In this document: positions 50,012 through 64,000 of the stretch, one piece after another
Position numbering within the stretch: the stretch's first letter is position 1
How the letters are laid out: every line of letters starts with the position of its first letter
Sequence record: MN850574.1
From: Escherichia phage kaaroe
Length of the DNA stretch: 64,000 bases
Reading direction: 5' to 3' (one strand)
The notes under the pieces: model-generated
What the model was told of the DNA's origin: nothing
Seen by the model: the letters and a program-made list of their open reading frames with translations, nothing else
Databases searched by the model: none
Translations under genes and position numbers: made by a program

Positions 50012-50344
50012 ATGAAAAATGTACTGATTGTGTGGGAACTGATTCCAGAAACTACTGAATTATACATGGTACAGGTTGACAATAAAGAATTTGAAATTCT
50101 GAAACGCGTCAACTGCAAATATATTAACATTGATGACATGACCCCAGAAATGGACTATGTAAACTATGCTCTCATGCAGCCTAGTTGGATTATGGATGAA
50201 ACTAAAGCAGACGCCGAATCGCTGGGTGTACCGGAAGAAGTATTAGCGAAATGGCATCAATTCAAAGTTGAAATAAAAGAGGGCGAACCGTTTATTCCTA
50301 GCGGTAAGATCGATGCGGTGATCGTAACAGGTTTTCATCTGTAA
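50012..50344 (+). CDS. hypothetical protein
   Basis: GTGAGGTGAACTATG start context. Confidence 0.45.
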   Translation: MKNVLIVWELIPETTELYMVQVDNKEFEILKRVNCKYINIDDMTPEMDYVNYALMQPSWIMDETKADAESLGVPEEVLAKWHQFKVEIKEGEPFIPSGKIDAVIVTGFHL

Positions 50345-50356
50345 GGAGATTATACA

Positions 50357-50689
50357 ATGTTTAACTATGACAAATATGAATCATGGAAAGCGACCGAATT
50401 GAAAGAGGCAGCGCGGTTAATCACACCGCGTCTTTATCCGGTGTTGTTTAGCGCAGATAAAGTAACAAGGGAAGTAAACGAGGCGCTATCGGTTTTAGGC
50501 TATCTGATCGATAAAGTAGAGAAAACATCGGTATTCACAAATAGCGTAGAATATACCCGGTATCGAGTGTTTTTAGATTCCTTGCTCGTTGTCATTAAGG
50601 CACTAAATGATCATAACTACACCATGAACATGACGAAAATAATCGACGAAGCAAGAATTATGACAGAGAATATTTTCGGTAAATTTTGA
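50357..50689 (+). CDS. hypothetical protein, paralog family C member 1
   Basis: C-terminal ..IIDEARIMTENIFGKF similar to the next gene. Confidence 0.45.
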   Translation: MFNYDKYESWKATELKEAARLITPRLYPVLFSADKVTREVNEALSVLGYLIDKVEKTSVFTNSVEYTRYRVFLDSLLVVIKALNDHNYTMNMTKIIDEARIMTENIFGKF

Positions 50690-50803
50690 TTATGAAAGAT
50701 GATGAATCATTGAAAATTGCACTGGTTATGCTATTACAAGGTATAGAATTAGCAAACCACGAAAAAATGTTGAAACAACAGCGTGAAATTATGAGAGGTG
50801 ATT

Positions 50804-51127
50804 ATGATCGAGTTTGAAATTGACAACTTTCACGAAAAAGCAGAAGACCTAACCAAAATTTTGATTAGTCGAGGTGCATATAATACGAAAGATATTATAA
50901 AAGAAGTTAATGTAGCGATGGACGCGATCCGAAAGGAATTTAAACATATTTCAGCGATTGGAGAAAATGGTCATCTTGAAGATGTTGAGCTGGTAGCACT
51001 GCGACGCTATTACTTCTTTGTTGATTGCATCATTGATCTAGCTAAAAATTATAGTCATTACATGAAAGATATTGTAAAAGATGCACGTAAGCTGGCAGAG
51101 AATGTTTACGGGAAGTTTCCAGAATGA
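50804..51127 (+). CDS. hypothetical protein, paralog family C member 2
   Basis: C-terminal ..IVKDARKLAENVYGKF similar to the previous gene. Confidence 0.45.
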   Translation: MIEFEIDNFHEKAEDLTKILISRGAYNTKDIIKEVNVAMDAIRKEFKHISAIGENGHLEDVELVALRRYYFFVDCIIDLAKNYSHYMKDIVKDARKLAENVYGKFPE

Positions 51128-52096: not shown

Positions 52097-52336
52097 TTAT
52101 TTAGGTAGTTGACTATCACTAGGTTTATCTTGCTCGTTACTATCTTCTGACTGATCTTTATTAAACTCCTTATAAAGTTCTTCCACAAAACGATCATCAA
52201 TTGGCGTATTGGTATAAGCCGCAAGACGACGAGCGCAATAGAAGAAAATTTTAGTGAGCATCTTTTCACTAATTAACTTTGACAATAATTTCATTCCGAA
52301 ATTAGACAAAGCACCAATGACGATATTATAGACCAT
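52097..52336 (-). CDS. hypothetical protein (79 aa) in the position of gene 38
   Basis: AAGGAGAAAC RBS; hydrophobic N-terminus, acidic C-terminus; no resemblance to T4 gp38 noticed. Confidence 0.45.
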   Translation of the reverse strand: MVYNIVIGALSNFGMKLLSKLISEKMLTKIFFYCARRLAAYTNTPIDDRFVEELYKEFNKDQSEDSNEQDKPSDSQLPK

Positions 52337-52376
52337 AGCCGTTTCTCCTTAGTAGTTCCCTTCCCTGGGAGTTTCC

Positions 52377-55139
52377 TTAATTCTTTTTAAGTTCCGCTAG
52401 TTCAGCTTTAACGGCATTCAATTCTTCGCTCATTTCCTGAAACGCCTTAATTAAAAGAGCGTTGACAGCAGAGTTAGAAATTGTTAAGATCTCTTCTGGC
52501 TTATCGGGATCGCCGATGTTAGAAGTTGTTACTGCTTCCGGTAATTCTTTTTCAAGATCCTGAGCAATAATACCAACTTCATGAGCAATGACAGTACGGT
52601 CGGTTAAAGATTTAACCTTGTCATAGGTGTATACCGTCAAGCGATTAACTTTATCAGTGGCATTCTCCTTATACTCTTCCTTGTTGATTTTAAGGCGAGC
52701 ATCAGAGCGAATGTAAACGTCGTTAAAGTTACCATTGCGTCCAGCTTGGAAATCGCCGTTTTTATAGAAGGTAGTATTAGATTCAACACCAGAACCTTTA
52801 ACATGAACTCGCCATGAACCTTCATTAAGAAGCATACCCAACGAGAATGTTACTGCACCTTGAACATAACGTTGCTTGATCAAAGGAACATATGTAGACG
52901 CATCACCACGGTCTAAACGTTGGAAAATAGGTGCTTTGACGTTATCATCATGTTGAGATGCAAAAGAACCAGCACCCGCAGAACCAGAATCTATAGTAAT
53001 GACGCTAGCGCCGCGTTGAATAGCATTACCAAAATTCAGACTACCGCCTACGTTAGCATCGCTTCCGCTATAGAAAGAACCTGCAACAGAGAACTTAACC
53101 GGACCAGTTCCACCCGCAGTACGTTCGGTATACCAATGATAACTTGTTGCATCCGTACATTCAAAAACTTGTTTTCGTGATTCATTACCCCATGTATGGA
53201 GACTAAATTGCGAAGAAGAACCACGGTTAGCATGGAATGTAATTTCGCCAGATTCTACACGCACAAATCCTTTAAATCGCGCAGTAATTTCACCGGTTGC
53301 CATTTTACGTTCAGTTGTGAAGTGTGCACCGCTATTGTCTTCAAACTGCAAAATGTTATCACGGGCGTTATTGCTATCACCCCAATGGTTGATTTTAAAG
53401 AAATCACGAGATCCTAATCGTCCACTAGAGAAATGAAGGAAACCTTTTTCTACATAAACATCACCCGTAAAACGAGCGGCTTTGCTTGCACGTTCTAACG
53501 TTAATGCAGCTTCGTTACCGTCACCGCCTAATTGAACGTTACCGGAAGTCAAATCGTAAATGAATGGTCGGTTGCCGTTCCACCCACCAAAACGATCATT
53601 TTCGGCAGTAGAAAGAAGATAAACTTTAGTGCCGTCATTACGCCAGAATGCACCATAATTACCAAAGATCATACGGTATGCATCAGAATTGGCAGCTACA
53701 TATTGACCATTAGTGTATACAATTTTGGTTGCACCTGCGCTTAAAGATACTTGACCACTTGCTTCTAGCTTAACAAAGTTTTTACCTTCGTCACTATACC
53801 ATTGAAAATCGTTGGTTTCTGTAGAACCAAAACCAAACCAGCCTTGACGTTTATTAGCCCCGTCTCGCTGATCCATATATTCAAAATAGTTACTACAACC
53901 AGTAGGACGCCACATACGAATCGCGTTATTGCCTTGCAGATGAAGTCTATTGACAAATAAACCATCACTACCAACAATTTTTAATACTTCTTTTTGGTCG
54001 GTGGAACCAGTAGCCAAACGATACACATCACCTTGAACAGTTTCATGCCATATTGTTTCCGCCGCACGACTGCGGAATTTACGCATATATTTTTTATTGT
54101 TGTCTGGTACGTTATTAAGGCTCACAATATCATAGGTTGCTTGTGAGTTATTATCAAACATCAACGTTCCGGCTTTGTTTTCTGTGTTGAACATCGTAAT
54201 AACACGAGCATCAAATTTAGTTCCGGTTGCTGGTGCAGTCGCCGAAAATTCAGGAACATCATAAACAGTCAATGCGACGTCAACAGTTTTTCCAAACTCT
54301 ACAATAACGTTATCGGTGTAACGACCATAGTTAACATAAATGTCATAGTTATCACCGGAAGTATTAATTGCAAATACTTCATGGACGTTCAAAGAATTTC
54401 GACGATATGCAGCAATAGTAACACCTTTAGGATTTCCATTCCCACCACGAATCACGATTTCAAGGAAATCCACCTGGTCGTAGGATTTAACATTAAATCC
54501 GTTTCCACCATAGATACGAATAAATGCCATTTTTCCTTGCTGGGGGATCATTGCGGTTGCAATCTTAAAGTAGCCACGAGTTGCGTCACCGGAAGGAACA
54601 GACATTTTAACGTTCTTAACAAACATACGGTCAATTTCTTGTTTGCTATAAACGTTCAATTCTCCTGGAGTTGGTTTATCACCTTCGTGATACATTTTAT
54701 AACTAAATGCTTTTTGACCTTCTCTATTATAGCCATAAGTTTCTACACGCGATCCAGTGTGCCCATACTGGAAAGTAAATCCTCGACCATGTTGGACACC
54801 GGAAGAGTGAGGAACGTTTAGCGTGAGTTCGAGAAGACCATCAAGACCATTGGTACGGAAAGCGCCAAAGTAGTTAAGATCTCTCGCTGTCTGATCTTCC
54901 AGATAGTTAGCGGTTTTACTTAAGATATAATTATTACCTTTAACCTTACCCGCCATTGTAACATCGCGGTCATAAACCGGAGGACAACTTAAATTGATAA
55001 TAGTACCGGAATCATTTTTAGTAAGAAGATATTGATCCGCAAGGTTGATTGCCAATTCCCCCGGATTCATCGTACTAGCATCAGGTTTACGACCTTTAGT
55101 GCTAGTGCGTTTAAATTGGATTCTGCTTAAATCTGCCAT
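52377..55139 (-). CDS. 37: long tail fiber distal subunit gp37 with C-terminal intramolecular chaperone (peptidase S74-like) domain
   Basis: N-terminal RIQFKR..PGELAINL and internal AGAGSFASQ..DASTYVPLIKQRYVQG match recalled T4 gp37; C-terminal SDARLK..GIIAQDLEKELPEAV matches the S74 chaperone signature. Confidence 0.9.
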   Translation of the reverse strand: MADLSRIQFKRTSTKGRKPDASTMNPGELAINLADQYLLTKNDSGTIINLSCPPVYDRDVTMAGKVKGNNYILSKTANYLEDQTARDLNYFGAFRTNGLDGLLELTLNVPHSSGVQHGRGFTFQYGHTGSRVETYGYNREGQKAFSYKMYHEGDKPTPGELNVYSKQEIDRMFVKNVKMSVPSGDATRGYFKIATAMIPQQGKMAFIRIYGGNGFNVKSYDQVDFLEIVIRGGNGNPKGVTIAAYRRNSLNVHEVFAINTSGDNYDIYVNYGRYTDNVIVEFGKTVDVALTVYDVPEFSATAPATGTKFDARVITMFNTENKAGTLMFDNNSQATYDIVSLNNVPDNNKKYMRKFRSRAAETIWHETVQGDVYRLATGSTDQKEVLKIVGSDGLFVNRLHLQGNNAIRMWRPTGCSNYFEYMDQRDGANKRQGWFGFGSTETNDFQWYSDEGKNFVKLEASGQVSLSAGATKIVYTNGQYVAANSDAYRMIFGNYGAFWRNDGTKVYLLSTAENDRFGGWNGNRPFIYDLTSGNVQLGGDGNEAALTLERASKAARFTGDVYVEKGFLHFSSGRLGSRDFFKINHWGDSNNARDNILQFEDNSGAHFTTERKMATGEITARFKGFVRVESGEITFHANRGSSSQFSLHTWGNESRKQVFECTDATSYHWYTERTAGGTGPVKFSVAGSFYSGSDANVGGSLNFGNAIQRGASVITIDSGSAGAGSFASQHDDNVKAPIFQRLDRGDASTYVPLIKQRYVQGAVTFSLGMLLNEGSWRVHVKGSGVESNTTFYKNGDFQAGRNGNFNDVYIRSDARLKINKEEYKENATDKVNRLTVYTYDKVKSLTDRTVIAHEVGIIAQDLEKELPEAVTTSNIGDPDKPEEILTISNSAVNALLIKAFQEMSEELNAVKAELAELKKN

Positions 55140-58076: not shown

Positions 58077-61000
58077 TTAGTCTTCCCAGATAAAGTCTAC
58101 GGTACGAGTCAGATTATTGGCGATGATTTTAACATTACCAACTTTGATCCAATCACGAACCGTCATAGAGTTCATTAAACCACCTTCTGCAACTACTGCC
58201 CCGATTTCCTGAGCGGTAGGCTTATTCTGTTTGGTGTAAATTTCACCCCATGCTGTCCATTGACCACCAGTACCGGAACGGATATAATGTTTATGAGTAC
58301 CATCAGGGGACCAAAGCTGGGTAAGCCCGTCCGCGTCAGTACCCCATTGCATCAGAGTACCGTTTTTCTTCTCTGGATAAGTTTCTTTGATGTTCTGGGT
58401 AGTAACTCGCATATTCCAGAAACCGATGTTACCGATTGCCGGAGCGGTTGCCGCGCTAGCTTCATGCTTAACAGAAACAATAGGCGCATTATCCATAGTC
58501 AGCTTACCGACCATTGTATCGCCAGCATTCTTAACAAACTGACGGTTAAGAACTTCGTCGGCGTTTCCTGCGTGTACGATCTGATATTTCTGTCCGGCGA
58601 TCTCTGTAGTTAACGTTTGATGACCTGCCTTGATGTTAACACTTCCACCGTGACCGATATTCAGCATACCATCTGAGGAACGAGTCATTGCCGGATTAGA
58701 CTGGTCAACTATGTATAAACCGCCTTGTTTCGCATACAGGTTACGACCTGCAATAAAGTCTCTATATGCTGTCGCGTCGCCATTGTGTTTCATAGCAAAG
58801 GCGTAATGCTCAACGACTCCACCATCATTGATTTTACCGAAAGCGATAGCATCACTATCAACAACTTGCGCTGTTCCAGTACCACCAACGATAATAGACC
58901 AAGAGTTTTTCATGCCTTCCGATGCGGTTGTGCCATGCAGAGTAATTCCGGTGTGACCGTCAACTCCACGCTCACCCAACACCAGATGACCATTACTCGG
59001 AACATCGGTCGAGTTCTTAGTCACAGACAGAGTTTCAAAGGAACCTGATTTTAAGCACTCTAAATCGCCCTTCACGTTAACGTTTTTATTAAACGTGTAA
59101 TTGCTCTCTATGGTCTGATCAATGTCTCTACGCGCCCATTTAGCGGCCTCTACGTTACCCAATTTCAAACTATTCTGAGCGGTTGCCATCTTAGGTAAGA
59201 AATTAGCAAGTGCGTAGTTTAATCCTTTAGGGGTAACAGCAATTCCGTCATGCTGGTAGTTTCCTAGTTCTTGAGTAGAACCTTGCAGATTATCACCAAC
59301 AAAACAGTTTTCCTGAGTAGCAACTTTCAAGAAGCCACGACGCGCTTCGGTTGCTTTCCATGTATCCTCTGTCTGAACAACATATTTGAAGTTCTTCGGA
59401 GAAATTGCTACATTGTCCATAATACCAGCCACGGTTTCGGCTTGAGTACCAACTCGGATAATACCTTCTTTACCTTCGGTGGCCTTTTTGCCTTGCAGCT
59501 TTTTAGGCGTGATGATTGTAGTATCATCTTGACCAGCGTCAGTAAGCTGAGTAGTCGCAACTTTAGCGACACCTTTTGTATCTTCGGTTGCATCCAGACC
59601 GCTGATCATGATACCTTGCCACAAATCACCAGTAAGGTTAAGCCCCTGAGTCGGATCTACTTTCAAACGCTGTGCATTCTCAAAGAAGGTTTTAATCTTC
59701 AATGGGGTAGAAATGCGATCATCGTCACGACCTGCGTCAAATTCCGGCTGAGTTGCAATTTCTGCTAAACCGTGTAAAGTTTCCGTTGCGCGGCGAGTAT
59801 GCAACTTTTTAGGCGTGATGATATGGTTATCACTTTGACCTAAGTTTGTTTCTTCCTGAGTTGCAATTTCAGCGATACCAGTGCGCGATTCGGTAGCAGT
59901 ACGTTTCGTTAGCGTGCGAGTCGTGATGAGTAAAGCATCTTGCTGGGTTGATTCTGTAGCCCCTTGCACTTCCGCGTCAGTTGCCAGATAGCCAACACCA
60001 CGGGAAGTTTCGGTCGCCTTGACTTCGTTGATGTTTTTTGGCGTAACAATTTTAGCATGGTCATTGATGTTATAGATCCCTGTACCAGCTTCGCCACGTC
60101 GAGCGGCAGCACTGCCGCCAGCCTGAACAATTTCAGCAATACCAGCGAGATCTTCGGAAGCGCGACGTTCTTCTAATTTCTTAGGAGTAATAGCGCGGGT
60201 ATCGTCTAAACCTTCATTGGTTTCGTGCTGGGTTGCAATTTCCATCACACCACGACGGGCTTCGGTAGCAACACAGTCATTTAACTTTTTAGGCGTAACG
60301 ATAACATCATCCAGGAAGTTGGAACCAGTATCTTGATGCGTTTCCGCTTGAGTCGCAATGCGAGCAATACCGCGTCGAGTTTCGTTGGCGGTTTTATTAG
60401 CCAGCATTTTTGGTGTTACTGCAACTTCGTCGCTAGGATTCTCTTCATGGTTTTTATTCGTTTCAGTTTGGGTAGCCAGTGCAATTACACCAACACGATC
60501 TTTACGAGTCGGATCTACTCGTTCTACAATCGGGTGAGCATGTGCCACCAACCAGTATTTCTTACCATCATCACCTTCTGAATAAGAGAACTCCAGATAA
60601 GGTACATAATCATTTGCAGCGTTGAAAGACAATTCAGATACTCCCGTCCATGTATCGGTCCCATTGAATGGGTACTCGCTACGCTTAGGAAACTGAACCA
60701 TGTTTTTCTGCATAAGGATTTTTGTATCCTCTGTGGCGGTGATAATACGGCAATTCTGGTTTCCGTTCATATACTGCATAGAAACTTGAATACGATCACC
60801 CGGCTCGACATTGGTCGGCAGCGTCAGAGTAACATCACGACCACCAAATACAGCAACATAGCTATTAGGTTGCAAGCGAGTGTCATCGATGATCGGTTTA
60901 AGACGAACAGACTGATCACCATCCCACAAACGCCATAAGTTTTCCGTCTTGTCAAAGATGAATACACCATGACCGCTACGCTTACCGATAATCTCTTTTA

Positions 61001-61817
61001 GACCGGACGTGCCAATTGATTGTTCTTCTGCGTGCTCATGAACTTTAACCGTAACGTGGTTGGTTGCGGTTAATCCGTCAAGGTCTGTAGTCTGGATCAT
61101 GTCGCCATTGTTGGCAAACTTAGGAAGCACTAAGGTAATATTACCCAACGAACTACGACGAAATACCTGATCACCATTCTGCATTTGAATAGCATCAATC
61201 GCTGGCTGTGCGTACACACCGCGTGGCTCTGTTCCTGTCTGATAAACATGCCAACGATTACGAACAAAGATGAAATAGTTCATTGCATACGGGGTAGTGC
61301 AATACCATTTTCGGTTGTACACATTACCGTTATGGTAAAACTCATGTCCTGTACTCAAGAACGATAATTCGTTAACACCACACTTGCCACCGATATCTTT
61401 TACTGTTATAGTGTCTCCCTCTGCTGGTTTAGTTGGCATAGAGAAAGTCAAGTTTGCAAATTGACCATCTGCTGCGATATAATCACCAGACTGTAAAGGA
61501 GTATCACCGGAAGTTGCTGCAATATAATCCCAACGTGGGTCCGTGCGCAGTGCTTGCCATTTAGTCGGGTCAAAATCACCTGCTGGCTTTGTGATATCTT
61601 CTTTTGCATAATACGGACGGTTTTGATAGATTGTAGTTCCGTATTGATCATAACCGCGAGTTGTGTCATACTGAGTAATACCATTATGGTAATTGAAAAA
61701 TTCAACGTTGACCGCATCGGTGTTGACATTCTTATCAGCCAATGCTACATTGACGACCTTTTCATTACCAGCGTCAAAGCCAAATGTGGCCTTGAAATGT
61801 TGAGAAAAATCTGCCAT
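58077..61817 (-). CDS. 34: long tail fiber proximal subunit gp34
   Basis: Repeated TETRRGIARIATQ / TEARRGVMEIATQ / TPKKL units and C-terminal TVRDWIKVGNVKI..FIWED colinear with recalled T4 gp34. Confidence 0.9.
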   Translation of the reverse strand: MADFSQHFKATFGFDAGNEKVVNVALADKNVNTDAVNVEFFNYHNGITQYDTTRGYDQYGTTIYQNRPYYAKEDITKPAGDFDPTKWQALRTDPRWDYIAATSGDTPLQSGDYIAADGQFANLTFSMPTKPAEGDTITVKDIGGKCGVNELSFLSTGHEFYHNGNVYNRKWYCTTPYAMNYFIFVRNRWHVYQTGTEPRGVYAQPAIDAIQMQNGDQVFRRSSLGNITLVLPKFANNGDMIQTTDLDGLTATNHVTVKVHEHAEEQSIGTSGLKEIIGKRSGHGVFIFDKTENLWRLWDGDQSVRLKPIIDDTRLQPNSYVAVFGGRDVTLTLPTNVEPGDRIQVSMQYMNGNQNCRIITATEDTKILMQKNMVQFPKRSEYPFNGTDTWTGVSELSFNAANDYVPYLEFSYSEGDDGKKYWLVAHAHPIVERVDPTRKDRVGVIALATQTETNKNHEENPSDEVAVTPKMLANKTANETRRGIARIATQAETHQDTGSNFLDDVIVTPKKLNDCVATEARRGVMEIATQHETNEGLDDTRAITPKKLEERRASEDLAGIAEIVQAGGSAAARRGEAGTGIYNINDHAKIVTPKNINEVKATETSRGVGYLATDAEVQGATESTQQDALLITTRTLTKRTATESRTGIAEIATQEETNLGQSDNHIITPKKLHTRRATETLHGLAEIATQPEFDAGRDDDRISTPLKIKTFFENAQRLKVDPTQGLNLTGDLWQGIMISGLDATEDTKGVAKVATTQLTDAGQDDTTIITPKKLQGKKATEGKEGIIRVGTQAETVAGIMDNVAISPKNFKYVVQTEDTWKATEARRGFLKVATQENCFVGDNLQGSTQELGNYQHDGIAVTPKGLNYALANFLPKMATAQNSLKLGNVEAAKWARRDIDQTIESNYTFNKNVNVKGDLECLKSGSFETLSVTKNSTDVPSNGHLVLGERGVDGHTGITLHGTTASEGMKNSWSIIVGGTGTAQVVDSDAIAFGKINDGGVVEHYAFAMKHNGDATAYRDFIAGRNLYAKQGGLYIVDQSNPAMTRSSDGMLNIGHGGSVNIKAGHQTLTTEIAGQKYQIVHAGNADEVLNRQFVKNAGDTMVGKLTMDNAPIVSVKHEASAATAPAIGNIGFWNMRVTTQNIKETYPEKKNGTLMQWGTDADGLTQLWSPDGTHKHYIRSGTGGQWTAWGEIYTKQNKPTAQEIGAVVAEGGLMNSMTVRDWIKVGNVKIIANNLTRTVDFIWED

Positions 61818-61845
61818 TATTGGGTCTCCTTTTATAGTATGTTCA

Positions 61846-61853
61846 TATTTATA
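61846..61853 (-). promoter_or_regulatory. T4-type late promoter TATAAATA
   Basis: TATAAATA on - strand 29 nt upstream of gene 34 ATG. Confidence 0.6.
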
Positions 61854-61891
61854 AAATAAGGCTTGATAGAAACAAAAGAGGATGATATATT

Positions 61892-62077
61892 ATGGTTAAA
61901 GTTGATTTGTCAGAAGGTGCAAAATGGGTAGTTGACAGAATCCCTGATAAGGATTACAATTATTTCCGCGCCGAATTAAACAATGCAATTCTGCGAGTTA
62001 TGGAGAAGTACGGGTATGACCGTGAAGTATCTAACTCGTTTGGCGAATATGTTGTTGTGAGAGTGGAGAGAACTTAA
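61892..62077 (+). CDS. hypothetical protein
   Basis: AAGAGGATGATATATTATG start context. Confidence 0.45.
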   Translation: MVKVDLSEGAKWVVDRIPDKDYNYFRAELNNAILRVMEKYGYDREVSNSFGEYVVVRVERT

Positions 62078-62079
62078 TT

Positions 62080-63027
62080 ATGACGTATAACCCATTTACA
62101 AAAACGACCGCTACACTTAATGATTTCTTCGATGATCCAGAAGATAAACTGCCGGAAGGTGTGCATTTGATTGATATGTCGCAGCTTATGATTGCTACTA
62201 TCTCACATACCTTTAAACCGGAAGATCCTATTAATGAAGGTATGATCCGTCATCTTATCCTTGACACCATGCGTTATAATATGACAAAATTCAAAGAGCA
62301 ATACCCAATTACGGTACTTGCCTTTGATTCAAGCAAAGGTTACTGGCGACGTGATATCGCACCTTACTATAAACGCAACCGTAAGGAAAAACGAGACGCA
62401 GATCCGCGTGATTGGGAGATGATCTTTGCTGCGATCAATAAGATCACCGAAGAGTTTAAAGAGAACATGCCTTATCACGTTATTAAGGTTGACAAAGTTG
62501 AAGCGGATGATATAATCGCTGTGTTAACTAAAAAGTTTTCTGTCGAAGGTCGCCAGGTGCTGATCAACTCAGGCGATGGTGACTACACACAGTTACACAA
62601 ATACAAAAACGTGAAACAGTGGTCGCCAGTACAGAAAGCGTGGAAGAAATGCAAATATGGTAGCCCTTACAAAGACCTTATGGTAAAATGTGTTAAGGGT
62701 GACGCAAAAGACGGTGTAGCTTCTATCAAGTGCCGTAGTGATTTCATTATCTCACGACTGGAAGGAGAACGAGCTAAACCAATTGCAACCAAATGGTTAG
62801 AGCAAATTTTCGATGCCGAAGATCCAAAGTCTTTGATGACAGAGGAAGAAGCACGACGCTTTGACGAAAACCGCGAACTTATTGATTTTGAATTTATTCC
62901 TGATAACATCGAATATGAAATTTTGTTAGCATGGGAGAAATCTAAACCAGCACCACGCGGTAAAATTTATAACTATTTTGTAACAAATGCGTTAGTTAAA
63001 ATGTTGCAGAAAATTGGTGAGTTCTAA
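62080..63027 (+). CDS. rnh: RNase H (5'-3' exonuclease/flap endonuclease)
   Basis: RHLILDT, YWRRDIAPYYK, VEADDIIAVL, SGDGDYTQLHKY.NVKQWSP and PRGKIYNYFV colinear with recalled T4 Rnh. Confidence 0.9.
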   Translation: MTYNPFTKTTATLNDFFDDPEDKLPEGVHLIDMSQLMIATISHTFKPEDPINEGMIRHLILDTMRYNMTKFKEQYPITVLAFDSSKGYWRRDIAPYYKRNRKEKRDADPRDWEMIFAAINKITEEFKENMPYHVIKVDKVEADDIIAVLTKKFSVEGRQVLINSGDGDYTQLHKYKNVKQWSPVQKAWKKCKYGSPYKDLMVKCVKGDAKDGVASIKCRSDFIISRLEGERAKPIATKWLEQIFDAEDPKSLMTEEEARRFDENRELIDFEFIPDNIEYEILLAWEKSKPAPRGKIYNYFVTNALVKMLQKIGEF

Positions 63028-63037
63028 GGGTTGATAT

Positions 63038-63634
63038 ATGAAAGAACTTGAATTAAAATACTATGCACACTCACAAATTGGCGTCGAAACAATCTGTGAT
63101 TTGTGGGTAGCAATGTATGACGGGTACAATCTAGTAGATCGTGCTAACACTCTAAAACACGAATTTTATTATGATACCGAAGATCATGCACTGCGTCGAA
63201 AAGGAATTTATGCTCGACTTGACGTTAATAGATCATTGATCATGGTCAAAATAGGTGATAGTGAATCTGGACTCTTCAACCGAGAAGAAATTACTTTTTC
63301 AACAATGGATGATTTCTATCATTATGTTGATAGTCTAGGCGTAAACTCCGACCTTATCGTTCCTTTATTGCAAGTAATGACATACCGCAAGTCATTGACA
63401 CTTGACCTTGAGGGTGCTATAGTGGAAATGTGCAAAGACACTTTCTATTATTGCAAAGTCGGCGAAAGAATGGGAGAGGCTCACTATGAACTTGAGTTCG
63501 AGTTAAAATCAGGTGATGAAAAAGCACTTGACATTATCCGAGAAATGATGCTAGAATATGTTGGTGACGATTTAAGTCCTAGCGAATTTTCAAAAGCTGA
63601 ACGTGGTTTTCAATTAATGACGAAAGAGGGTTAA
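63038..63634 (+). CDS. CYTH-like (triphosphate tunnel metalloenzyme-like) domain protein
   Basis: N-terminal ELELK (ExExK) and C-terminal YELEFELK acidic motif; 198 aa. Confidence 0.45.
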   Translation: MKELELKYYAHSQIGVETICDLWVAMYDGYNLVDRANTLKHEFYYDTEDHALRRKGIYARLDVNRSLIMVKIGDSESGLFNREEITFSTMDDFYHYVDSLGVNSDLIVPLLQVMTYRKSLTLDLEGAIVEMCKDTFYYCKVGERMGEAHYELEFELKSGDEKALDIIREMMLEYVGDDLSPSEFSKAERGFQLMTKEG

Positions 63635-63638
63635 TATT

Positions 63639-63914
63639 ATGACTGAACAGAAAAAAGAAAAAGTAGTATTTGACGAAGCAGTGCACGGAAATACCCTGGC
63701 ACAACTGATTAAAGAAGCCAGCGATCAGAAAACCATTCAAGAAGCATATGGCGATAAGATCAAAGAGATCAAACAGCGTGCTAAAGAAGAATTAGGCGTA
63801 GATGGTAAAATGTGGGGCATTCTGTTTAAACTGTATCACCAGCAACAGCGCGAAACCTTCGAAGCAGAACGCGATGAAGCAGTAGAACTCTATGATCGGG
63901 TGTTCAATGCTTAA
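63639..63914 (+). CDS. dsbA: late-promoter/dsDNA-binding protein DsbA-like
   Basis: FDEAVHG..LAQLIKEASD..RAKEELGVDGKM..FEAERDEAVELYDRVF resembles recalled T4 DsbA; position after rnh. Confidence 0.6.
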   Translation: MTEQKKEKVVFDEAVHGNTLAQLIKEASDQKTIQEAYGDKIKEIKQRAKEELGVDGKMWGILFKLYHQQQRETFEAERDEAVELYDRVFNA

Positions 63915-64000
63915 TGAACATGCGGTAAAAGCCGCGAATAAAACAGCAAACGGTCTTGCAATCGAAAAACTGGTTGTTGAAGAGGGATTGACTTATCTTG

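Follow-up and report, generated by a model that had tools for sequence, protein, structure and literature searches.

What is the role of the gene that lies between rnh and dsbA in Escherichia phage kaaroe (MN850574.1), at a place where T4, in which dsbA comes directly after rnh, has no gene at all? The initial annotation had taken this gene for an insertion relative to T4 and its product for a CYTH-like protein, and on both counts the present analysis agreed with it. The window (the whole 64,000-nt stretch of DNA analysed) belongs to Krischvirus; when the 2-kb region was compared with phage records, identities of 95–99% to 41 records and of 90–95% to 17 more were obtained, all of them RB49/JSE/Phi1-like Krischvirus. 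The gene in question is the following:

63038–63634, + strand: CYTH/triphosphate tunnel metalloenzyme (TTM) gene, 198 amino acids, ATG start (open reading frame (ORF) list, Pfam and fold model).

An exact-sequence look-up matched the product to QHR66236.1 of Escherichia phage kaaroe, without a single difference. An in-frame TGA is present at 63032–63034, two codons before the ATG, and a longer N-terminus is therefore impossible. The placing of a CYTH gene between rnh and dsbA is correct but already recorded, and it adds little alone. What is new here is that the active-site tunnel of the protein is strictly conserved, whereas the rest of it varies between near-identical phages to the extent that a tail-fibre tip does. 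As set out below, the sequence data suggest that the tunnel is held fixed while the exterior diversifies fast through exchange of a central cassette, and the protein is predicted to be a triphosphate hydrolase.

The CYTH domain call for RB49-like phages was already public. UniRef names the product 'CYTH domain-containing protein', and PGAP gives the same name to copies in E. coli assemblies. In GenBank the note to RB49ORF244c reads 'similar to P45267, P30871, HI1598, ygiF', and Nolan et al. (2006; PMC1524935) enter this ORF with 'CYTH domain, E 0.0026'. RB49ORF244c, Phi1 ORF245 and phrog_14893 are orthologues of the kaaroe gene and belong to the same family, with identities of 98% (RB49) and 83% (Phi1); in PHROGs the kaaroe protein matched phrog_14893 (1.5e-131), which is labelled as of unknown function. 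Other phage records name the orthologues 'hypothetical protein', 'inorganic triphosphatase' or 'adenylate cyclase'.

The product is a stand-alone, single-domain CYTH/TTM protein of the YgiF-like branch. Pfam CYTH (PF01928) was matched at E 4e-6 with 27.2 bits, the gathering cut-off being 23.2, and amino acids 41–190 were aligned to profile positions 36–178 of 179; the NCBIfam scan gave no match for the protein. When the PDB was searched with a profile built from 21 phage homologues (A1), E. coli YgiF was matched (E 0.0028), and hhalign of A1 with 41 cellular YgiF-like CYTH proteins gave a probability of 99.7% (E 8.5e-27) over 189 columns. The match above the curated Pfam threshold and the hhalign result both bear out the family assignment of the initial annotation. 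When the same profile was run against 1.84 billion representative proteins, 205 matches were obtained at E ≤ 0.001, only 6 of them below 1e-10; most were stand-alone proteins of ~200 amino acids or proteins of ~500 amino acids, and the ones checked were CYTH proteins.

AlphaFold2 was run with A1 and gave a model (predicted local distance difference test (pLDDT) 92.1; predicted template modelling score (pTM) 0.85) that consists of eight long strands with helices between them and one helix at the C-terminus:

Amino acids 2–10, 31–46, 57–62, 67–76, 79–87, 108–123, 127–140 and 148–159: strands of the AlphaFold2 model.
Amino acids 186–195: helix of the same model.

The predicted fold is thus an eight-strand antiparallel β-barrel tunnel with a C-terminal plug helix. 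In the Foldseek search with this model YgiF ranked top (E 3.4e-13, template modelling score 0.77), and the next ranks were nearly all TTM enzymes, namely plant TTM3/HpAC1, BH2851, SaTTM, ThTPase, CyaB, Vtc4 and viral capping triphosphatases; the Mediator Med18/20 subunits were the non-TTM exception in the list. Solved TTM/CYTH structures headed both fold searches. The initial annotation had let its reading hang on a CYTH profile match and on an eight-strand tunnel in the predicted fold, and both were found.

The catalytic residues were compared in a MAFFT alignment of 93 sequences, the cellular relatives numbering 87. Residues E3, E5, K7, Y44, D46, R60, K71, R82, E84, R117, E130, D134, E151, E153, E155, K186, R189 and G190 were common to 79–87 of these 87. 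The basic tunnel residues that in this family face an acidic patch are accordingly present (R60, K71, R82 and R117, with E84, E130, D134, E151, E153 and E155), Asp62 in place of the second RxR Arg being the one departure. The motifs lie as follows:

63044–63058, + strand: ExExK (E3, E5 and K7) in strand β1, unvarying in 21 phage and 87 cellular sequences; E3 and E5 would be metal-site-2 ligands by homology to YgiF E4 and E6.
63209–63223, + strand: Y58-A-R60-L-D62, at the 'small-x-R-x-R' motif of the family; R60 is equated with YgiF R56, on which hhalign and MAFFT concur.
63248–63289, + strand: K71 (YgiF K69), R82 and E84, tunnel residues in strands β4 and β5, unvarying in the 93 aligned sequences, with R82 at 86/87.
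63386–63388, + strand: R117, basic tunnel residue in strand β6, in 93/93 sequences.
63488–63508, + strand: E151-L-E153-F-E155-L-K157 in strand β8, with E153 and E155 in 93/93.
63590–63607, + strand: S185-K186-A-E-R189-G190, start of the plug helix (cf. YgiF SKAARGY), with K186 in 93/93 and S185, R189 and G190 in at least 90%.

The two motifs on which the initial annotation relied, an N-terminal ExExK and a C-terminal acidic strand, are accordingly real: the first is E3-x-E5-x-K7 in MKELELK, and the second is E151/E153/E155/K157 in YELEFELK. In YgiF, metal 1 is bound by E160, whereas the ligands of metal 2, the metal that activates the nucleophilic water, are E4, E6 and E162; the catalytic Arg is R56, and K69 orients E4 (Martinez et al., 2015; PMC4641920, which is also the source of the AtTTM3 residue roles). 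By homology, E153 would correspond to the metal-1 ligand (YgiF E160) and E155 to the metal-2 ligand (YgiF E162).

The register at R60 was not the same in all alignments. HMMER, both pairwise and with the profile, placed Y58 opposite the catalytic R56 of YgiF and R60 opposite R58, a register shift of two, whereas in hhalign and the 93-sequence MAFFT alignment the first and second Arg of RxR were matched by R60 and D62, respectively. In YgiF, BH2851, GBAA_1210, SaTTM and HpAC1 the first Arg comes 14 positions after the Asp/Glu/Asn of 'YYDT', with no gap, and R60 likewise comes 14 positions after D46. The hairpin after RxR differs in length among solved TTMs and within the phage clade. R60 was taken as the catalytic Arg because hhalign, MAFFT and the ungapped spacing concur; all three speak against the HMMER register, in which Tyr58 replaces this residue and which was judged less likely, the indel then falling in the following hairpin. 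That R60 holds the position of the catalytic first Arg is well supported in these alignments, but not absolute.

Published rules separate class IV cyclases from hydrolases of this fold: in the cyclases HF stands four residues before ExExK, the first Arg of RxR is changed to Val, Cys or Leu, and ExA is found instead of ExE (Vogt et al., 2021; PMC8233210). In the phage protein only M1-K2 precede E3, with a stop codon upstream, and HFxxxxExExK is absent; R60 is kept, without the cyclase-type loss of the first Arg; and E153-F-E155, not ExA, is present, both residues occurring in 93/93 sequences. All three cyclase signatures are thus lacking, which argues for a hydrolase, and we predict that the phage CYTH protein is a triphosphate hydrolase and not a cyclase. 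That it should be a class IV (CyaB-type) adenylate or nucleotidyl cyclase, making cyclic AMP or another cyclic nucleoside monophosphate to reprogramme the host, is hardly to be expected; in the structural ranking, too, CyaB stood well below YgiF, BH2851, TTM3 and ThTPase. The 'adenylate cyclase' names in phage records are probably misannotations, and their correction would be useful; 'triphosphatase-type CYTH protein' is a defensible name. The label stands on orthologues in MK573636 (PHB13), OR352938 (AV108) and OR525698 (KMB43) and is spreading through phage records.

Hydrolase chemistry is, in our judgement, probable, and our proposal is a triphosphate hydrolase that uses two metals and has a changed specificity pocket. 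Such an enzyme would depend on Mg2+ or Mn2+; it would thread a triphosphate-bearing substrate through the eight-strand β-barrel and cleave off its terminal phosphate. Domain, fold, residue conservation, synteny and cassette polymorphism come from the sequence analysis itself, whereas catalysis, timing of expression and the class of substrate are inferences. By homology to YgiF, metal 1 would be held by E153 together with the substrate, and metal 2 by E3, E5 and E155, the latter metal activating the attacking water; R60 would touch the β–γ bridging oxygen, and the phosphates would be bound by K7, K71, R82 and R117 along with K186 and R189 of the plug helix.

The pocket itself differs from that of the cellular relatives. 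Where the phage proteins have Y58-x-R60-x-D62, the cellular sequences have A/S/G/T in 81/87 at the Y58 column and R in 85/87 at the D62 column, and the phage M69-x-K71 stands against a cellular T-x-K (Thr in 78/87 at the M69 column). Clade-specific residues were found at the inferred tunnel positions Y9, K40, E42, M69, F80, T115, T121, D123, C132, F136 (Gly in 67/87 cellular sequences), Y138 and H149. An aromatic residue before RxR (W/Y-x-R-x-R) is a hallmark of ThTPase and stacks on the substrate ring (PMC8233210). The clade-specific tunnel end points to a substrate pocket unlike that of a plain inorganic triphosphate (PPPi) enzyme; given the remodelling at Asp62, Tyr58, K40, M69, F136, Y138 and H149, the substrate is probably not simply inorganic triphosphate, and it may carry an organic group.

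These same residues bear on a simpler possibility, namely that the protein is just an inorganic triphosphatase or short-chain polyphosphatase, a CHAD-less phage version of the YgiF tunnel domain that clears PPPi or polyphosphate (polyP) in infection. YgiF is the closest solved relative by sequence as well as by structure, every metal ligand and the catalytic Arg are kept, and some GenBank records use that very name. However, the second Arg of RxR is replaced by an unvarying Asp, and Y58, K40, M69, F136, Y138 and H149 are peculiar to the clade; a lost phosphate-binding Arg together with bulky aromatics is unexpected for a pure PPPi site. The CHAD polyP-binding domain is also absent, and identity to YgiF is only 23–24%. 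We regard the plain inorganic triphosphatase as a serious possibility, but a doubtful one.

Between kaaroe and Skers, rnh and dsbA have 95–100% DNA identity, whereas identity falls to ~50% over most of the CYTH gene and returns to 95–98% in its last ~155 nt. The gene accordingly has two parts:

63062–63478, + strand: variable cassette, ~codons 9–148 (sliding identity; boundaries approximate within ~20 nt).
63479–63634, + strand: constant 3′ part of the CYTH gene, amino acids 148–198, with 95–98% nucleotide identity to all Krischvirus alleles.

The same cassette boundaries were found against a metagenomic P0042-type allele (~50–60%) and, in milder form, against Phi1 (~82%), and at least four deep allele classes of the cassette occur in otherwise near-identical Krischvirus genomes. 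Synonymous sites of the cassette are saturated between allele classes (proportion of synonymous differences, pS, 0.77–0.85), and the synonymous substitution rate (dS) of the 3′ part is 0.03–0.19, the level of the backbone, reaching 2.2 against the distant contig L003. The cassette would therefore represent deep allelic lineages exchanged by recombination within near-identical genomes, with the constant 3′ part as a probable downstream recombination arm. A special constraint on the C-terminal 50 amino acids was considered and rejected, since dS equals that of the backbone and divergence is normal in L003; this is simply the unreplaced part of the gene.

To the left of the cassette there is a short variable patch in the 3′ part of rnh (62850–62930, ~amino acids 258–284), a gene otherwise 95–100% conserved. 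Its identity is 63–83% to RB49, Phi1 and Skers and 95–100% to the P0042-type contig and G2494, and it has the look of a further mosaic segment, smaller than the CYTH cassette and lying shortly before it.

When the whole window was tiled against Skers, the median identity was 98%, and only three divergent segments of at least 500 bp were observed:

50251–51075: small + strand ORFs beside a putative holin gene.
52276–55050: distal tail-fibre gene region.
63001–63525: CYTH cassette.

The distal tail-fibre gene of kaaroe occupies 52377–55139 (− strand) and encodes 920 amino acids; Skers has instead a 1060-amino-acid fibre and a separate adhesin.

Variation within the cassette is not spread evenly over the protein. 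Among the strand residues of the 21 sequences, 20 of the 36 positions inferred to face inward were unvarying, against 0 of the 38 inferred to face outward (Fisher p 1e-8), and in helices α1 and α2 only 2 of 27 positions were unvarying. The ratio of nonsynonymous to synonymous substitution rates (dN/dS) of the cassette was 0.34 between kaaroe and the moderately diverged Phi1, and that of the constant part was 0.05–0.15 for most pairs; a cassette value of 1.36 between kaaroe and RB49 rests on ~1% divergence and is not meaningful. A fixed tunnel whose exterior is exchanged as a cassette between ~98% identical genomes is a pattern expected of phage–host interface genes, and it makes the CYTH gene a reasonable and cheap object for genetic tests of such a role.

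The gene was present in all 58 phage records with an rnh–dsbA region (all Krischvirus), and its ORF was intact in 57 of them; the order rnh–CYTH–dsbA-33 was kept in every one. In the remaining record, phage vB_EcoM_G2494 (L009), a 1-nt deletion at ~1674, equivalent to ~63212 of the window (codon 59), splits the gene into ORFs of 66 and 130 amino acids, and a matching 130-amino-acid product (P0034) is present in the protein database. Three distant relatives come from T4-like contigs of metagenomes, their identities to the kaaroe CYTH protein being 44%, 36% and 32%; in each of these contigs dsbA and gene 33 follow directly after the gene, and rnh precedes it wherever the contig extends far enough. 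The corresponding identities of rnh/dsbA are 79%, 76% and 66%, and the CYTH protein therefore diverges two to three times faster than its neighbours. When the kaaroe protein and the two relatives farthest from it were run by tblastn against 50,697 phage records, only the same 58 Krischvirus records were returned, and an IMG/VR scan gave only 3 loci, all Krischvirus-like. BFVD holds other phage CYTH proteins (Aeromonas phages, uncultured Caudovirales) as distant structural matches only.

The nearest non-phage relatives that were looked up are an archaeal gene by a PRK-family kinase gene and another gene by a Mur ligase gene on a short contig. With these as the nearest relatives, and with an identity of only 23–24% to YgiF, a recent capture of host ygiF is not supported. 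The archaeal gene (P0046, the nearest of these; archaeal metagenomic contig L016, 4797–6606) lies directly downstream of the PRK-family (phosphoribulokinase/uridine kinase) gene, and this pairing of PRK and CYTH is the one fused in a single protein in plant TTM1/TTM2.

The rapid change of the exterior raises a further possibility, compatible with hydrolase activity, in which the protein serves counter-defence or host takeover by destroying a triphosphate nucleotide (an alarmone, a signalling nucleotide or a precursor), its surface diversifying as hosts sense or inhibit it. The initial annotation had suggested, as speculation, that the protein might interfere with host nucleotide signalling, and the idea stays speculative, with modest indirect support from the cassette polymorphism. 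In 64 kb only two other large segments diverge as the cassette does, both in or beside the distal tail-fibre region; this is in keeping with such a role, and so are the excess of CYTH divergence over that of rnh and dsbA, the combination of a varying exterior with a fixed tunnel, and the retention of the gene in 58/58 Krischvirus records. Yet the PADLOC scan gave no match for the CYTH protein at E ≤ 1, no paper joining CYTH/TTM proteins to anti-defence was found in the literature searched, and no candidate target molecule was identified; the cassette dN/dS is 0.34 and not above 1, and fast evolution and mosaicism are common in T4-like accessory genes whatever their function. A role of this kind is, on balance, rather unlikely. 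The fuller version is a speculative proposal and an unlikely one: the remodelled end (Tyr58, Asp62, Lys40 and others) would confer a new specificity, for thiamine triphosphate, an alarmone, a signalling nucleotide or some other organic triphosphate, and the exterior would be swapped because host systems recognise or inhibit it. If true, this would be the first TTM-fold enzyme with a role in phage–host conflict.

The opposite view, that the protein is a non-catalytic binder (sponge) holding its ligand without turnover, or a decaying remnant of a gene being lost, draws on the frameshifted isolate, on the shortened 130-amino-acid form in the databases and on the loss of the catalytic Arg that would follow if the HMMER register were right. 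It is very improbable. The full set of metal ligands is unvarying across alleles only 56% identical overall and across relatives at 31–48%, which is hard to explain without metal-dependent chemistry, and with 57 of 58 genomes carrying an intact ORF and dN/dS below 1 a gene in decay is not indicated.

Several points weigh against a two-metal hydrolase with a fixed tunnel and a diversifying exterior. One Arg of RxR is missing, and under the HMMER register the missing one would be the catalytic residue; hydrolysis should then be weak or absent. In the two most distant relatives Tyr58 gives way to Val or Ile, and stacking by an aromatic side chain is therefore not a feature of the whole clade. The inward and outward calls were made from strand parity anchored on known motifs and not from coordinates, and for the timing of expression discussed below the only basis is gene order together with consensus scans. 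Unless it is a sequencing error, the frameshift in G2494 makes the gene dispensable at least for propagation. In the literature searched, no enzymatic, expression or genetic data were found for any member of the phage clade.

The surroundings of the gene are compact. It has the following neighbours:

62080–63027, + strand: rnh (T4-type RNase H/5′-3′ exonuclease), upstream neighbour (Pfam RNaseH_C 2.6e-37, 5_3_exonuc_N).
63639–63914, + strand: dsbA (late-transcription dsDNA-binding protein), downstream neighbour (Pfam Phage_DsbA 5.4e-22).

The gaps are 10 nt between rnh and the CYTH gene and 4 nt between the CYTH gene and dsbA, with a purine-rich Shine-Dalgarno-like stretch in each. The rightward block runs rnh-CYTH-dsbA-33-59-32 and reads away from the late gene 34 (58077–61817), which is leftward. 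Opposite-strand ORFs within the CYTH gene reach at most 53 amino acids and were rejected for want of support, and an Rfam scan of 61700–64000 on both strands gave nothing at E ≤ 1.

Between gene 34 and rnh there is an ORF of 61 amino acids (61892–62077, + strand) that matches phrog_3594 (function label unknown, 2.6e-31), where T4 has no gene; with this ORF on one side and the CYTH gene on the other, Krischvirus rnh has genus-specific insertions on both flanks. Farther along the block, an HNH homing-endonuclease gene lies between genes 59 and 32 in Skers (L001, 5802–6398) and G2494 (L009, 3298–3593); it is missing from this position in RB49 and Phi1, and T4 has the GIY-YIG endonuclease segG there.

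Yet another possible substrate would be RNA 5′ ends: a 5′-triphosphatase could act on the pppApC... Okazaki primers that the neighbouring RNase H processes, or on the 5′ ends of host mRNA for faster decay, and TTM-type RNA triphosphatases are known from eukaryotic viruses. In Pfam at E ≤ 1, however, only CYTH and a weak, below-cut-off Baculo_p74 were matched, without mRNA_triPase (PF02940), and in structure the protein matches the small-molecule TTMs far better than it does the Cet1-type enzymes. T4, moreover, processes its primers without such a gene, and the order of inserted ORFs is weak evidence of function. An RNA 5′-triphosphatase is accordingly quite improbable.

The late-promoter motif TATAAATA was not found on the + strand anywhere in the 64-kb window; only two matches were obtained, both on the − strand and one of them before gene 34. 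Counted as consensus matches only, there were 16 sigma-70-like sites on the + strand of 61700–64000 against 6.4 ± 2.8 expected; these included sites upstream of the 61-amino-acid ORF that opens the block, and the following:

62489–62516, + strand: perfect TTGACA-16-TATAAT with an upstream TG, inside rnh (consensus match).
63395–63423, + strand: sigma-70-like site in the variable cassette of the CYTH gene, not kept in Skers.
63528–63557, + strand: sigma-70-like site before dsbA, within the constant 3′ part of the CYTH gene; shared with Skers.

Since the rightward block has short gaps and no + strand late-promoter motif, the CYTH protein probably appears no later than the replication phase, in company with the other proteins of the block. 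The sigma-70-like consensus matches, taken with the gene order, likewise suggest that it is expressed pre-replicatively, as are the accessory genes of replication and late transcription around it.

The literature searched yielded no functional work on phage CYTH proteins, and thus no characterised phage CYTH enzyme. A clade that combines a conserved core with an altered YxRxD end is a tractable target for a substrate screen. If the protein has no role in phage–host interplay, the gene would be an ordinary accessory gene of nucleotide or phosphate metabolism in one phage genus.

Among known systems, the Cet1-type RNA triphosphatases (mimivirus, poxvirus D1, baculovirus LEF-4) have in common with the kaaroe protein that they are virus-encoded and of TTM fold; they belong, however, to PF02940, are parts of capping enzymes and have no known phage counterpart function. 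The CyaB-type class IV adenylate cyclase of Y. pestis (PDB 2fjt/3n0y) is likewise a CYTH-superfamily protein with a single domain of ~180 amino acids and two metal sites, whereas the phage protein is without the HF motif and keeps both the gatekeeper Arg and ExE. In comparison with mammalian ThTPase (PDB 3bhd, 5a64), the phage motif ends in Asp and not in Arg, and sequence similarity is marginal. The stand-alone bacterial and archaeal TTMs (NeuTTM, CthTTM, SaTTM, BH2851) are shorter (150–190 amino acids) and have the intact RxR that the phage protein lacks, and in the profile search the phage clade grouped with the longer YgiF-like tunnel domains rather than with these. Compared with the tunnel domain of E. 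coli YgiF itself (PDB 5a60/5a61; an inorganic triphosphatase of CYTH-CHAD architecture), the phage protein has no Pfam CHAD match and ends at 198 amino acids, 8 residues past the plug-helix motif; it has Asp for the second RxR Arg, Tyr for the small residue and clade-specific residues at some ten more tunnel positions, and its gene is phage-borne and fast-evolving.

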